Below, piece after piece: positions 4,732 through 62,630 of a stretch of DNA of 64,000 nt (position 1 is its first letter; each line of letters begins with the position of its first letter). The stretch is taken from contig OX597832.1 in NCBI GenBank assembly GCA_951406725.2, positions 48,856,001-48,920,000 of the forward strand, read 5' to 3'. Under the pieces are notes generated by a model, which had not been told where the DNA came from, ran no database searches, and saw only the letters and a list, made by a program, of their open reading frames with translations. Both the position numbers and the translations under genes were made by a program. This DNA comes from Octopus vulgaris (lineage: Eukaryota).

Positions 4732-4926
4732 AACGGGAAGGTTTACCAAAATAAACAAAAGACGAAGGCAGGTGGAGTACAAACAAACAAATGTATTAGT
4801 ATGGCGCTCAGGAATAGAAATAGAACAAGTATTTTACGTTTCGAGCCTACGCTCTTCGACAGAAAGATATACAGAAAAAAACAAGGAGAGAAAAATGCGT
4901 GTAGGAGCTAACGATCTATCATGGCG
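4732..4926 (-). mobile_element. ~200-bp hammerhead-bearing ORF-less element (family P1, Penelope pLTR-like)
   Basis: Homologous to 38348-38550, 61058-61300, 61637-61819; flanked by (TA)n; contains hammerhead motif. Confidence 0.8.
4832..4865 (-). ncRNA. Minimal type I hammerhead motif, variant core CUGUCGAA
   Basis: Minus strand: ttt CTGTCGAA gagc-gtag-gctc GAAA cg TA aaa. Confidence 0.6.
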
Positions 4927-6771
4927 TGTGTATATATATATATATATATATATATATATATATATATATATATATATACATATATATGTATGTATGTATG
5001 TATGTATGTATATATATACACACATATATATATATATATATATATATATATATTTGTATATATAAGCGTATGTATAAAATATACACGCATTTAGGTAATT
5101 ATCAACGATTGCATGTGAAATTTTAAACGTCTCACATCTAATATATAAATCCTCGGATTTTAATGGCTGATAGGAAATACATGCTTACACAGACACACAG
5201 ACACCCGCGCACAAACACACGCCCATATGCTATATATATATATATATATATATATATATATCAAACCAGATTGATCATAAAAGTGTAAGACAAAAGCAAA
5301 TGGAGGTCCAACGATAGAGCGACGGAAATTGCAATCCCTCTTCTTCTATTCTCTCTCTCTCTCTCTCTCTCTCTCTCTCTCTCTCTCTCTGCATATATGT
5401 ATGTGTGTGTGTGAGTGCCTGAGCGAGTGTGTGTGTCCGTGCGTATGAATACGCACGCACAAAGACACACACTTACATGTATAAAGCATTTGTACGTTTG
5501 TGTATGTATATATAACGATAAGAACGACAATTGTGTAACGTTTGTTTGTGCTTATATATTTCTGCACATGTCAATTAATTTACTAAGGATGATTTACTGC
5601 TGTATATATTAAACGAGGTTCTCTGTAAACAAAAGGAAATTGACTATTTGTTCTTATACTTCATAGCTTTTTGTCTATAAACAATATGTGATATATATAT
5701 ATATATATATATATATGTGTGTATGTATGAATGTATATATATATATATATATATATCAGATACCCTATCTCACACACTCATGTGAATGTGTGCATGTGTT
5801 TGTGTGTACGTAGATGTGTGTATATATATATATATATTTATAAATAATATATATACGCATATATATATGTATATGTATATATATATGCATATATATATAT
5901 ATATATATATATATATATATATATATATATATATATAGCGAGAATTTACAATATTATATATATATATATATATATATATATATATATATAAATACATGCA
6001 TATATGGGTACAGGATGTCACCAACAGTAACCAACATGAAATACTAAAACAAACGAGATCGATACGGAAACAACGAGAGAAACAAATGGAAAACAGGACA
6101 AGTCGCAGAAAGTCAGTGGTAACAACTTTTAACAGGTTCCGTTGTTACTATACCTCTTCAGTGAAGCATACTCAACATAGTTTGTTGGTACGAAGTAAAT
6201 TCATATAATTAGAGAAATTTGTATTATGGCGTTCAAAACATCCCCCAAATTTGCCTATAGTATGAATGGCTTAGAATTTAATCCGGGTTTTCCATTCTTG
6301 TTCTGGTGATCAGAAATTAGATTAGATTACTAAAAGCAATTGTAACTTTATTAGTATTTATCTCCACTTAAGCGTGAATGTTCTATTAGAATAAATCTTA
6401 CTACAGTTTTACCATGAGTAAAATTCCCATATAGGCTTTTCGGCGCAAAATGCACTCTTATTTATATCGCTATCGGGGAGGTAAATCCCTGGTATCTCTA
6501 GAGCGGAGACCACCAGATCCAGTGATTTCGATATTCTTTGGTCTTGCCAATGATGAAGACTCGATCACTAGAGACAACAGCAATTTATGTCTTTGCTAGC
6601 GGTATACCTGGATAGGTGCTTGTGTTGCGATTTGCGGACAAGGAACCATGTAGTTGGGAAGCAAAATTGTTACCAGTCAGCCACGGCTGTGCATATATAT
6701 GTATATATATATATATATATATATATATATATATATATATATATATATATATATATATATATATATATTTA

Positions 6772-6962
6772 TAGTTATTCCAAACATGAACAAAGAGAAA
6801 TCACAACAACGCGAGGACGTGGGACAAGTATAGTGTTATTGGACGCTCAGGAAAGGAAAGAAAGAAAGAGGACTTAACGTTTCGAGCGGAGCTCTTCGTC
6901 AAAAACATAGAAAAAGGAAAGACCTGAGGAAGCGAACACGGAGAAAGGAAATCGCCAACGAT
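6772..6962 (-). mobile_element. P1-related hammerhead-bearing element
   Basis: Motif at 6873-6905 minus: ttt TTGACGAA gagc-tcc-gctc GAAA cg TT aag; homologous to 28515-28640; between (TA)n and (TATG)n. Confidence 0.7.
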
Positions 6963-7420
6963 ATATATATATGTGTATGTATGTATGTATGTATGTATGT
7001 ATGTATGTATGTATGTATGTATGTATGTATGTATGTATGTATGTATGTATGTATGTATGTATGTATGTATGTATTATGTATGTATGTATGTATGTGTGTA
7101 TGTGTGTATGTGTGTATGTATGTATGTATGTATGTTTGTATGTATGTATGTATGTATGTATGTATGTGTGTATGTGTGTATGTATGTACGTATGTATGTA
7201 TGTATGTATGTATGTATGTATGTATGTATGTATGTATGTGTGTGTATGTACGTATGTATGTGTGTATGTGTGTATGTGTGTATGTATGTATGTATGTTTG
7301 TATGTATGTATGTATGTTGTTTGTATGTATGTATGTATGTATGTATGTATGTATGTATGTATGTATGTATGTATGTATGTGTGTGTATGTACGTATGTAT
7401 GTATGTATATGTATGTATGT
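6962..7420. repeat. (TATG)n microsatellite
   Basis: Read directly; complementary (CATA)n tract at about 7715-7893. Confidence 0.97.
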
Positions 7421-8268
7421 ATTGATTATAAATATTTGTATGAAAACAATGACTACACACATTCTATATAGTTAACTGTACGCTTCTTTATTTATGGAGA
7501 TATCGATTACCCTCTGGCGCGGTTTGTATGAAGTATACGCGAAGAAAAGAAATCCTGGACAAATCTTAAAGGAAATAATGAATATGATTATAAACAGACA
7601 TGCAATCCTATCTTCTGTTATAAATACCATTTCAGGACATAAACATATACATGTGTACATACATACAGACAGACAATCAGACATACACACACACACACAA
7701 ACACACACGCAGATGCATACATACATAAATACATACATATATACATATATACATCCATCCATCCATCCATCCATCCATCCATACATACATCCATACATAC
7801 ATACATAAATACATACATACATACATACATACATACATACATACATACATACATACATACATACATACATACATACATACATACATACATACATGAATAT
7901 TTACGTATATACTGCCGCGATAGAGAACTTATGCTCAGAGTGACCTCTCTTTGGTACTTCCTAAGTAGGAGTGCTTAAAGTGCAAGGAATTCTGCATCCG
8001 ACAAAAGGGAACCCGACAAAATGCAGAACTGGGCACAAATGCTGTTTTTACGCCTTTTAATATGAGAGAATTTTCTCAGCACAGTAACAAAAGTGAATTT
8101 GGCTTTAAAAGTTGAAGTATGCCAGAAACCTCACATGCACTTACATACATACATTCTTGTGTGTATATGCATATATATATATATATATATACGGAGAGAG
8201 AATATTTGCAAGAGATTCCGAAGTCATCTGGAGGCCGTGGTTGAAGGCAATGGCGATTTTATTAAATA

Positions 8269-8804
8269 CAGCGTGTCCCAAAAAAATGTATACACTTGCT
8301 GCAACAGTCTGTCATGCTAAGCATTAGAGAGGACTTTGAACAGGAAGAGTTTTATTTCCAGCAAGATGGGGCTCCTCTACACTACCATCGCGATGTTAGA
8401 TCCTTTCTTGATGGGATCTTGCCAAACAGGTGGATTGGACGGAGAGGTTTTGTCGAATACCCTCCACGTTCACCAGACCTCACACCACTAGACTTCTTTT
8501 TATGGGGATACTTAAAGGACAAAGTCTACGTACAGAAACCTGCAACAGTCGTTCAATGGAGGGCAACCATTGAACATGAATGTACGAATATCCCAAGGGA
8601 ATTGTTCCATGATGTGTGCCATTCCATCGCTTCGTGTTGTCAGCAGTGTCTGGAGCAGAACGAACATCAGTTTGAGAACATGCGATAACAAGACAATAGA
8701 ATGATATTTGTAAATTCTTTTACATGTTGAAAATTATTCGAATTATAATAAACCCCAAATTTACAATTATTTAAGGTGTGTATACATTTTTTTGGGACAC
8801 CCTG
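8269..8804 (+). mobile_element. Internally deleted Tc1/mariner DD41D (rosa-type) transposon
   Basis: 27-bp TIRs CAG(C/G)GTGTCCCAAAAAAATGTATACAC at both ends; TA target duplication at 8267-8268 and 8805-8806. Confidence 0.93.
8296..8688 (+). pseudogene. DD41D transposase C-terminal fragment
   Basis: FQQDGAP...WIGR...YPPRSPDLTPLDFFLWGYLKDKVY; 41 residues between the D of QQD and the D of PLD; N-terminal half and first catalytic D missing. Confidence 0.92.
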
Positions 8805-61057: not shown

Positions 61058-61300
61058 AACGGGAAGCTTTATGAAAATAGACAAAAGACGAAGGCAGGTT
61101 TACGGAAATAAACAAAAGACGAAGGCAGGTGTGGAATACAAACAAACAATTGTATTAGTATGGCGCTCAGGAAATATAAATAAAACAAGTCTTTAATGTT
61201 TCGAGCCTACGCTCTTCAACAGAAAGATACACAGAGAAAAAACACAGAAAGAAGGAGAGAAAAAAATATGCGTGCAGAAGCTAGCGAATCAACATGGCGA
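61058..61300 (-). mobile_element. Family P1 element, hammerhead motif 61191-61226
   Basis: Minus: cttt CTGTTGAA gagc-gtag-gctc GAAA ca TT aaag; internal duplication of acaaaagacgaaggcaggt. Confidence 0.8.
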
Positions 61301-61636
61301 TATATATATATATATATATCTTTAGTTAAATATATTCAATGAGAATATCATATACTGAATCTATATTGAGTGGTCTATTGTGTCAGAGTATTAATACTAT
61401 TAAAGTATTTATATATTTAATACGGGCGATAATATATACATATTTATTTTATACATTATACATTCATACTTATACATATTTATATTTTCAATACAACAAT
61501 TATTCTACATACGCATATATCTTTCTGAAGAATTTTCTAATAATGATTTCCAGATATTAATTATAATATATTATAATATATATGTATATGTATATATATA
61601 TATATATATATATATATATATATATATATATATATA

Positions 61637-61819
61637 TGATAGATCGTTAGCCACTACACACAAATTTTTTTTCTCTCCTTGTTTTTTTCTGTGTCCCTTT
61701 CTACAGAAGAGCGTAGGGTCGAAACGTAAAATACTTTTCTATTCCTGAGCGTTATACATCTGTTTGTTTTGTACACCACCTGTCTTCGTCTTTTGTTTTT
61801 TTTTTCGTAAACTCTCCCT
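61637..61819 (+). mobile_element. Family P1 element, decayed hammerhead motif 61697-61732
   Basis: cttt CTACAGAA gagc-gtag-ggtc GAAA cg TA aaa; (TA)n on both sides. Confidence 0.8.
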
Positions 61820-61874
61820 ATATATATATATATATATATATATATATATATATATATATATATATATATATATA

Positions 61875-62630
61875 TTTAGGGAAACCACTAGGTGGATAAC
61901 CATACGCTAGAAGATCACATACGATCAAACTACAAAGAAAAAATGTTCTCCAGAGAAAATTCTGCGAACACCAGAACATAAGCGGGCAAGACAGATGAAA
62001 ATTATATAAAAATCAAGAATTAATCGTATACCGATTTCGTCTATTACCGAATAAATTATTTACGAAATCCTTCGTCCGCAGAACGCGTCAGTACGATCGT
62101 TCCAATTTCAATATAATTTGAAAAACTAAACACTATCTGTCCATATAAATCTAGACATGTGCTTAGTTCTACCGATTATATTGAGGTTAATTTCAAATGT
62201 CTAAATTCCGGCGCGCTAAATTCCGGAAACAGTTCTGCAGCAGATAATTTACTGCAGTTAATGTTGCCAATTAGAGAACATAATTATTTTAAAATTTAAA
62301 TAATGAGGGAGATAAATTGAATATTAATTAACATCAATTTAAAAGCAGTAGCCTAGCGCATAAAAAATCTGAATACATTTAGGAACACCACTAGGTGGAT
62401 AACTATACGCTAGAAGAAGATCACATACGATCTAACTACAAAGCGTACTGACGAGTTCTGCGGACGAAGGATTACGTAAGTAATTTATTCGGTAACAGAC
62501 GAAACCGGTATACGATTAATTCTTGATTTTTATATAATTTTCATCTGTCTTGCCCGCTTCTGTTCTGGTGTTCACTGAATTTTCTCTGGAGAACAGTTTT
62601 TCTTTGTAGTTAGATCGTATGTGATCTTCT
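61875..62630. mobile_element. Family P4: 503-bp unit with partial tandem repeat plus inverted segment
   Basis: ccactaggtggataac at 61885 and 62388; 62444-62630 is the reverse complement of about 61910-62095. Confidence 0.9.
62444..62514 (+). ncRNA. Type I hammerhead motif with fully canonical core and long stem II
   Basis: cgta CTGACGA gttctg...cagac GAAA ccgg TA tacg; mutated mirror copy at 62023-62097 minus. Confidence 0.8.

Follow-up and report, generated by a model that had tools for sequence, protein, structure and literature searches.

A 64,000-nucleotide stretch of the Octopus vulgaris genome (assembly GCA_951406725.2, contig OX597832.1, positions 48,856,001 to 48,920,000 of the forward strand; here the window, numbered from its first letter) was examined for hammerhead ribozyme motifs and for the repeats that carry them, which include ends of Penelope-like elements (PLEs) and short non-coding units. 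The window, part of a 2.8-Gb genome of 227 contigs, has 35% G+C and 21% simple repeat, and its repeat map was made by masked self-BLAST, since a plain repeat search was swamped by microsatellites. A first-pass annotation made from the letters alone had listed 21 motif coordinates (18 main and 3 decayed sites) and described a dense community of hammerhead-bearing micro-retroelements without open reading frames (ORFs). All 21 coordinates were checked on both strands. No PLE ORF was found within the 64-kb window, and ARAGORN predicted no tRNA there. An Rfam scan of the window (E values up to 1) showed no hammerhead among the 150 of 324 matches listed, which were mostly microsatellite-driven microRNA models, and is uninformative either way. 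The features are listed below by window coordinates; core bases are given with their hammerhead positions (for example, U6), and pseudo-LTR stands for pseudo-long terminal repeat.

4733 to 4926, minus strand: family A, 3' pseudo-LTR end of an autonomous, putatively Neptune-type PLE; U6 hammerhead, core 4862, predicted cut after 4835
6777 to 6963, minus strand: family A2, 3' end of a sister PLE; core 6902 (C3 replaced by U), predicted cut after 6876
12462 to 12681, minus strand: family B, inverted copy of a 360-nt non-coding unit; C3·A8 core 12672; ends ~45 nt before the end of the direct copy
12692 to 12958, plus strand: family B in direct orientation, with the 3' end passing into (TA)n; core 12700 is C3·A8, cleavage predicted after 12730
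17412 to 17633, no single strand: family F, inverted pair; minus-strand motif 17474 passes the descriptor, plus-strand copy (~17572) decayed
22630 to 22730, plus strand: family C relative, PLE 3' end; U3:A8 core 22675
23142 to 23324, minus strand: local 116-nt duplication, (TA)n run included, with two relatives of family C; 23321 passes, 23173 has a broken stem II
25015 to 25209, minus strand: family K, ~195 nt, with the shared 5' end; motif 25187, family core G3:C8 (here U4 replaced by G), predicted cut after 25151
26590 to 26690, plus strand: family C-prime, decayed; U3:A8 hammerhead with a deletion after GAAA
28480 to 28630, minus strand: family A2 copy, decayed; stem II mismatch, G17
30137 to 30322, plus strand: family K copy; G3:C8 core 30157, GAAA decayed
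33826 to 34000, minus strand: family A3, a relative of A2 assigned by likeness; core 33953 with C4
34271 to 34575, no single strand: family E 3' fragment with an inversion; hammerhead part not included
36735 to 37507, no single strand: insertion made of direct and inverted pieces of the non-coding family D unit (~455 nt); on the minus strand, C3:G8 core ~36960 with a single mismatch in stem II, cleavage predicted after 36899
38349 to 38550, plus strand: family A PLE end; core 38427
39020 to 39326, plus strand: family B2, whose non-coding unit measures 355 nt; core 39119 is U3:A8, with a single mismatch in stem I, cleavage predicted after 39151
47660 to 47790, plus strand: family A PLE end, diverged; core 47709 with C6
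59217 to 59363, plus strand: family E 3' fragment; hammerhead part not included
59495 to 59610, plus strand: PLE end of family C with a mutated stem III palindrome; 99% identity to the pseudo-LTR of a young full-length element
61059 to 61299, minus strand: family A PLE end; palindrome mutated
61638 to 61818, plus strand: family A PLE end; core decayed
61862 to 62443, minus strand: family E, more than one 544-nt unit; core near 62091, A9 replaced by C
62445 to 62630, plus strand: inverted partner in family E, with a long stem II; core 62448 is the canonical CUGACGA, cleavage predicted after 62510

The pattern given by the first-pass annotation itself produced 7 hits in the window, compared to a mean of 0.52 (maximum, 3) in 100 masked dinucleotide shuffles. 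A second descriptor produced 8 hits versus 0.03 (maximum, 1; 60 shuffles), and a third produced 11 hits, 6 of which scored ≥7, a score reached by none in 50 shuffles (the comparison with shuffles applies to scores of ≥7). The third descriptor was passed by 10 of the 18 main sites (cores 4862, 6902, 12672, 12700, 22675, 23321, 33953, 38427, 47709, and 62448), and the remaining 8 (23173, 28536, 36895, 39113, 59536, 61191, 61697, and 62023) are members of the same families in which one or more changes disrupt a core base or a pair. Between 11 and 12 of the 18 sites are 3' ends of PLEs, 70 to 240 nt long (families A, A2, and C, with A3 by likeness), and 6 belong to families B, B2, D, and E. The motif set is real and dense; roughly two in three motifs are truncated PLE ends, and the others belong to retrozyme-like units. 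Copies that stand alone and have decayed are most likely inert. The first-pass list of sites was incomplete, as families F (17474 and ~17572) and K (25187 and 30157) had been missed. Among the sites listed as decayed, 26596 is a deleted copy of a real family, 9487 has no other copy in the 1.82 Mb of genomic loci fetched for comparison (numbered with L below), and 28264 did not hold up, as other copies of its repeat have no hammerhead there. That repeat family (window 28200 to 28470) has inverted copies in L122, L191, L240, and L315, and a hammerhead was not confirmed in it. A two-copy, 100-nt tandem at 33160 to 33343 (site 33216) contains a GAAA-palindrome-UH half and no convincing 5' core, with no other copy in the fetched loci.

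Pairing was compared across the commonest natural copy of each of 19 families from the window, the autonomous elements, and a genome sample. Pairs 1.1:2.1 (stem I) and 10.2:11.2 (stem II) were Watson-Crick in all 19 families, each with all four pair types, so that both stems covary between families. Pair 15.2:16.2 was likewise Watson-Crick in 19/19 families, and the 3:8 core pair was Watson-Crick in 18/19, again with all four types: C:G in 10 families, U:A in 6, G:C in family K (9 copies), A:U in family N5 (4 copies), and a C·A mismatch in 1 (family B). Pairing at all four tested pairs far exceeded that of shuffled partners. Position pair 10.1:11.1 was G:C in 15/19 families, and an extra base follows A9 in families A, A2, C-prime, D, F, K, and R1. 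Stem III was short and palindromic in every family, with inserts of 2, 4, or 6 nt and differing palindromes, and is compatible with dimers. The core (N3 U G A N N8 A with GAAA and UH) was present in type I order, with family-fixed departures of U6 (family A), C3·A8 (B), and C4 (part of A2, A3, and N3), and the catalytic bases G5, G12, A13, and A14 were retained in every parsed family. Within family A, position 6 was U in 71 of 73 copies, and the core was nearly invariant except at position 7 (C, 36; T, 18; A, 15; G, 4), which is a known free position of the hammerhead. These patterns support assignment of the motifs to minimal type I hammerheads of the PLE type, with cleavage predicted. Family N5 is an autonomous PLE end with an A3:U8 core (L111, ~2070 to 2110). 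Further hammerhead families, R1 to R4, were seen outside the window (L363 at 702 and 1237 and regions of L313, L292, and L326) and include a pair spaced 535 nt apart with an 8-nt palindrome.

The ends classified as A and C are the pseudo-LTRs of full-length elements that encode reverse transcriptase (RT) and a GIY-YIG endonuclease. Copies of family A have a fixed 3' end in (TA)n, and some run upstream through a low-complexity 3' untranslated region (UTR) into a GIY-YIG frame. The A end lay downstream of the ORF on the same strand in 18 of the 20 loci fetched by its endonuclease protein piece, and the ORFs of L243 and L245, open for 1098 and 930 codons, respectively, are flanked by the motif on either side. 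In profile searches, RVT_1 was over the cutoff for A (L243) and C, and GIY-YIG was below the cutoff for C and gave no hit for A. Family A aligns with C across the endonuclease and with GIY-YIG clusters, and Atlas neighbors of L243 have HTH_animal, RVT_1, and GIY-YIG domains. With 40 hits at 97 to 100% identity, family C is young. Its full-length copy in L217 contains ORF1, a 762-codon RT/GIY-YIG frame, the motif in both pseudo-LTRs, and an inverted third copy; PLE protein hits lay near 9 of 25 family C loci, inverted pairs were found, and the family has two alternative 3' ends ~39 nt apart. Family A2 extends >1.5 kb upstream and reaches an RT/GIY-YIG fragment, 57 to 64% identical to that of A, in one of eight extended loci. 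Copies of PLE ends of intermediate length reach into the endonuclease, and other autonomous families, found through GIY-YIG alone, also end in minimal hammerheads. The proposed tie between minimal type I hammerheads and PLEs was thus borne out by A and C, and the description of the families as lacking ORFs is accurate inside the window and not for the parent elements elsewhere in the genome. A and A2 copies beside GIY-YIG fragments in L096, L098, and L107 were rejected as ORF links, as they are antisense and separated by (TA)n and are therefore independent insertions.

A cysteine-rich linker between RT and endonuclease is present in translations of A, C, and N1, and this linker, which is shared with Nematis, together with the domain order, points to the Neptune clade for A- and C-type elements. 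N1 (L121 to L126), a young autonomous PLE family, retains many intact frames of 781 codons; it has ORF1 upstream and a hammerhead of the U3:A8 type. Outside the window, another high-copy PLE family was found (L339 at 4745 to 6913, L337, L338, L341, and L342), presumably of the Nematis type, with a 3' UTR that is very long and rich in (TA/TG) and a hammerhead-like end of its own.

Families B, B2, D, and E, and probably K, appear to be non-autonomous hammerhead elements. The units of B, B2, D, and E measure 360, 355, ~455, and 544 nt, with longest ATG-initiated frames of 67, 35, 57, and 22 amino acids, respectively, and for these families the earlier description as ORF-less held. The junction from the 3' end of a unit back to its start was crossed in 23/30 (B), 11/20 (B2), 9/30 (E), and 5/25 (D) loci, some of which overlap. 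Insertions of B consist wholly of the 360-nt unit; direct copies end at unit positions 222 to 228 and inverted copies often at 183, 5' ends vary, two alternative 3' ends lie ~40 nt apart, and the best ~40 hits are 97 to 100% identical. Head-to-tail copies with at least two hammerheads were found for B, B-prime, B2, E (L007), and D (L188), and arrays reached 3.3 units in B, 10 units in B2, and 7 motifs in B-prime (an array that lay in the genome sample). B shares a 3'-terminal segment with B-prime, B2, and further relatives, among which the 3:8 pair is compensated as C3:G8 (L289) or U3:A8 (B2). B-like sequence, the unit junction, and both compensated 3:8 forms were also present in contigs of three runs guessed to be RNA and of one unlabeled run, which have no bearing on expression, transcript ends, or circles. 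Family K (~195 nt) has a common 5' end with unrelated upstream flanks. No pseudo-LTR homologous to the B, B2, D, or E units was found among the PLE loci fetched, a partial survey of PLE families. Three candidates were rejected: an endonuclease fragment next to B (L080/L139) as the parent of B, since it comes from another PLE family, which has a 3' end of its own, and is an insertion target; E-like pieces in L130 and L135 as a link, since they are separate insertions; and a four-unit array of K as a sign of a circle. A B-related inverted pair without the hammerhead part lies at 319 to 507 of the window.

Density was counted with family queries from outside the window, and copies spanning the motif were scored. 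The 64-kb window holds 20 such copies. A genome sample of evenly spaced stretches totaling 400 kb yielded 25, including a single array that contributed 7, and 200 kb of neighboring DNA yielded 11. The frequency of one motif per 3 kb given in the first-pass annotation thus describes the window (1 per 3.2 kb) and not the sampled genome (1 per 16 to 18 kb), relative to which the window is ~5 times denser. Motifs passing the descriptor numbered 15 in the 400-kb sample and 6 in the 200 kb of neighbors. The (TA)n content was 4.9% in the window, 2.7% in the genome sample, and 5.0% in the neighbors; (TA)n alone is insufficient to account for the density of the window, because the neighbors combine 5.0% (TA)n with ordinary density. 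Extrapolated from the sample, family copies would number ~1.1 × 10^5 to 2.6 × 10^5 genome-wide (Poisson statistics, clustering ignored).

Insertions have fixed 3' ends in or beside (TA)n, variable 5' ends, and inverted partners. Among family A copies, 17 of 31 had 5' ends 86 to 109 nt upstream of the predicted cut, and 1 of 31 started at the cut; relative to the cut, 8 of 11 A2 copies started at -84 to -109 and 8 of 17 K copies at -56 to -65. The window is very probably a local pile-up of PLE retrotransposition, composed of 3' ends of autonomous elements (A, A2, and C) and of non-coding permuted units (B, B2, D, E, and probably K), the latter likely copied in trans by a similar RT-endonuclease, and all of them contain a minimal type I hammerhead for which cleavage is predicted in the dimer only. 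According to published PLE biochemistry, the endonuclease would nick AT-rich DNA. Synthesis of cDNA would begin internally, from either of two sites that lie 3' of the hammerhead, and would end prematurely to leave hammerhead-bearing stubs, as suggested by PMC11167929 and PMC4209133. Such a start would explain why 3' ends are fixed, why B and C have tails of ~40 nt, and why the motif is retained even in the shortest stubs. Tandem or circular RNA of the short units might yield the 1 to ~3 units per insertion, and hammerhead dimers formed through the palindromic stem III are predicted to cut tandem transcripts to monomers, probably aided by protein. Because 5' ends lie upstream of the cut, templates would be mostly uncut at the hammerhead or circular, and most inserted copies likely did not arise from linear RNA cut at the hammerhead. 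The preferred 5' ends may be either transcription starts or truncation hot spots.

Several observations weigh against this interpretation. Among the PLE loci fetched (again a partial survey), none proved to be an autonomous partner that shares a 3' end with B, B2, D, E, or K. Attachment to RT and GIY-YIG frames, which the first-pass annotation had proposed to look for, was found for A, C, and A2. The link of A2 to an ORF comes from a single extended locus, and A3, F, and C-prime have no demonstrated link. Three of the four C copies in the window are a sister form, 81 to 83% identical to the copy that matches the full-length element, and are linked to it by likeness. The (TA)n between units of the K array indicates local duplication and removes it as evidence of a circle. 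The 5' alignment ends may partly reflect subfamily divergence, and the covariation test is partly circular, as parsing of the families was visual and pairing was already required by the descriptor through which several of them first came to light. The U6 of A and the C3·A8 of the B copies in the window are both expected to weaken activity, and cleavage, transcript ends, and circular RNA are predictions from sequence.

The probability that the motifs are chance matches in AT-rich, repeat-rich sequence is close to nil. The descriptors were relaxed, and sites 28264 and 9487 lack support from other copies; however, the excess over shuffles refutes this explanation for the 18 main sites, and the motif recurs at the same place in PLE pseudo-LTRs that were found through the endonuclease alone. 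It is highly improbable that all of the families are non-autonomous ORF-less micro-retroelements. The lack of a PLE ORF in the window and the ORF-less units of B, B2, D, and E fit that description, and short RNAs of A and A2, which share preferred 5' ends as K does, may be mobilized as a distinct class, but it is already refuted for A and C, whose ends are pseudo-LTRs of ORF-bearing elements with intermediate copies entering the endonuclease, and the upstream extension of A2 to an RT/GIY-YIG fragment also argues against it.

A further alternative, which is compatible with the PLE origin proposed above and differs on function alone, is that the motifs are retained because they serve the PLE protein as an RNA fold or as a binding signal, with self-cleavage weak or dispensable for spread. 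The fixation of U6 in a high-copy autonomous family, the C3·A8 core of a dispersed B subfamily with 97 to 100% identity, and the scarcity of 5' ends at the cut are consistent with such a role, as are reports that an anole PLE inserted in vitro without need for cleavage (PMC11167929) and that 8 of 9 Xenopus retrozyme dimers did not cleave (10.64898/2026.07.22.740005). In contrast, the 3:8 pair has been kept through four Watson-Crick types along with G5, G12, A13, and A14, as expected of selection on catalysis, and B has compensated relatives. On balance, this alternative is unlikely, although it carries appreciable weight. A local pile-up of PLE ends and units likely copied in trans remains the preferred reading of the window. 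For the genome as a whole, we tentatively propose, with slightly less than even confidence, that copies of PLEs and retrozymes with hammerheads number on the order of 10^5; that they fall into at least 19 families, among which all four Watson-Crick 3:8 pairs occur (G3:C8 and A3:U8 as natural forms); and that a high-copy autonomous family with U6 and a young C3·A8 retrozyme spread with cores expected to be weak.

If true, this genome would be among the most ribozyme-dense of animals and would provide a natural experiment on whether PLE hammerheads must cleave for spread. These hammerheads show poor cleavage in vitro, and insertion in the sole reconstituted system can do without them. Sister elements differ at single core positions (B, C3·A8; B-prime, C3:G8; B2, U3:A8; and A, U6, versus A2, A6), and these, together with young, near-identical autonomous and non-autonomous families, make hammerhead function directly testable. 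Some short repeats in cephalopod libraries that are likely filed as short interspersed nuclear elements (SINEs), miniature inverted-repeat transposable elements, or unknown may be PLE ends or retrozymes. The overall system was already known, which limits the surprise.

Other repeats were found in the window. An abundant repeat ending in (TA)n (4540 to 4715 and 6006 to 6112) contains hammerhead half-cores in permuted order, with copies in L009, L033, L094, L135, L196, L221, L279, L297, L298, L334, L368, L371, and L378. The distance from GAAA to the CUGANGA downstream of it is exactly 29 nt in 6 of these 13 copies; stem II could pair, stem I does not close, and the arrangement is reminiscent of the "half core" cases noted for Naiad elements. 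Two abundant SINE-like families occupy 17 and 13 intervals (e.g., 3884 to 4256 and 19883 to 20771), one of them with a 184-nt tandem run at 20055 to 20731. A 140-codon frame at 8266 to 8807, with a 30-nt repeat at both ends, had no Pfam hit; we take it to resemble a piece of Tc1/mariner transposase.

A literature search returned no paper on octopus hammerhead elements, no natural G3:C8 or A3:U8 core, and no fixed A6U in a high-copy family or young C3·A8 family. These negatives are weak, as the key literature on core variants was incompletely covered and PMC3884650 contains one mention of G3-C8. Natural U3:A8, U4C, and A6C were reported in PMC3088659, the last with low activity. PLE hammerheads and retrozymes are reviewed in PMC6765202, and 235 Rfam hammerhead matches were reported for the giant squid genome (PMC6962438). 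A 2026 octopus repeat annotation describes 31 recently active PLE families (PMC13282606); in a term search, ribozyme, hammerhead, and retrozyme were absent from its main text, and its library and supplements may hold these families.

Minimal hammerheads in PLE pseudo-LTRs, and scattered singly from truncated elements, were described by Cervera and de la Peña in 2014 (PMC4209133). The octopus motifs resemble those metazoan hammerheads in the many families per genome, the short palindromic stem III, the extra base between 9 and 10.1, the U3:A8 variant, and the opposite-strand pairs 100 to 700 bp apart, whereas cephalopods and the G3:C8, A3:U8, fixed U6, and C3·A8 cores are not mentioned in the parts of that paper covered. 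Its counts are 2,000 to 9,000 per genome versus the extrapolated 10^5 here, with different search methods. Like the endonuclease-containing (EN+) PLEs of the Neptune clade (Craig et al. 2021, PMC8557442), the octopus elements have RT with a C-terminal GIY-YIG, a cysteine-rich linker, pseudo-LTRs, inverted 5'-truncated copies, a 30- to 40-bp tail (seen in C), and microsatellite targeting; families C and N1 differ in having a separate upstream ORF1, and the clade assignment draws on the linker and domain order only. The non-LTR retrozymes of animals (Cervera and de la Peña 2020, PMC7229834), for which a PLE origin is discussed in a 2026 preprint by Li et al. (10.64898/2026.07.22.740005), are similarly non-coding units of a few hundred nucleotides with one type I hammerhead that occur as monomers, dimers, and arrays in genomes with PLEs. 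The units described here differ in their minimal, PLE-type hammerheads, in short arrays that are often inverted like PLE insertions, and in having no homologous pseudo-LTR found. The PAc Poseidon element of Anolis (Frangieh et al. 2024, PMC11167929), with two internal start sites, AT-rich nicking, a protein-assisted hammerhead, and insertion without cleavage, is matched in the two internal start sites giving the tail and in the AT-rich targets. The natural G3:C8 core of family K corresponds to the engineered C3G/G8C change in PAc, which partly restored cleavage. The element classes, PLE ends and retrozymes, are thus already published, and the families and core variants described here add to them.

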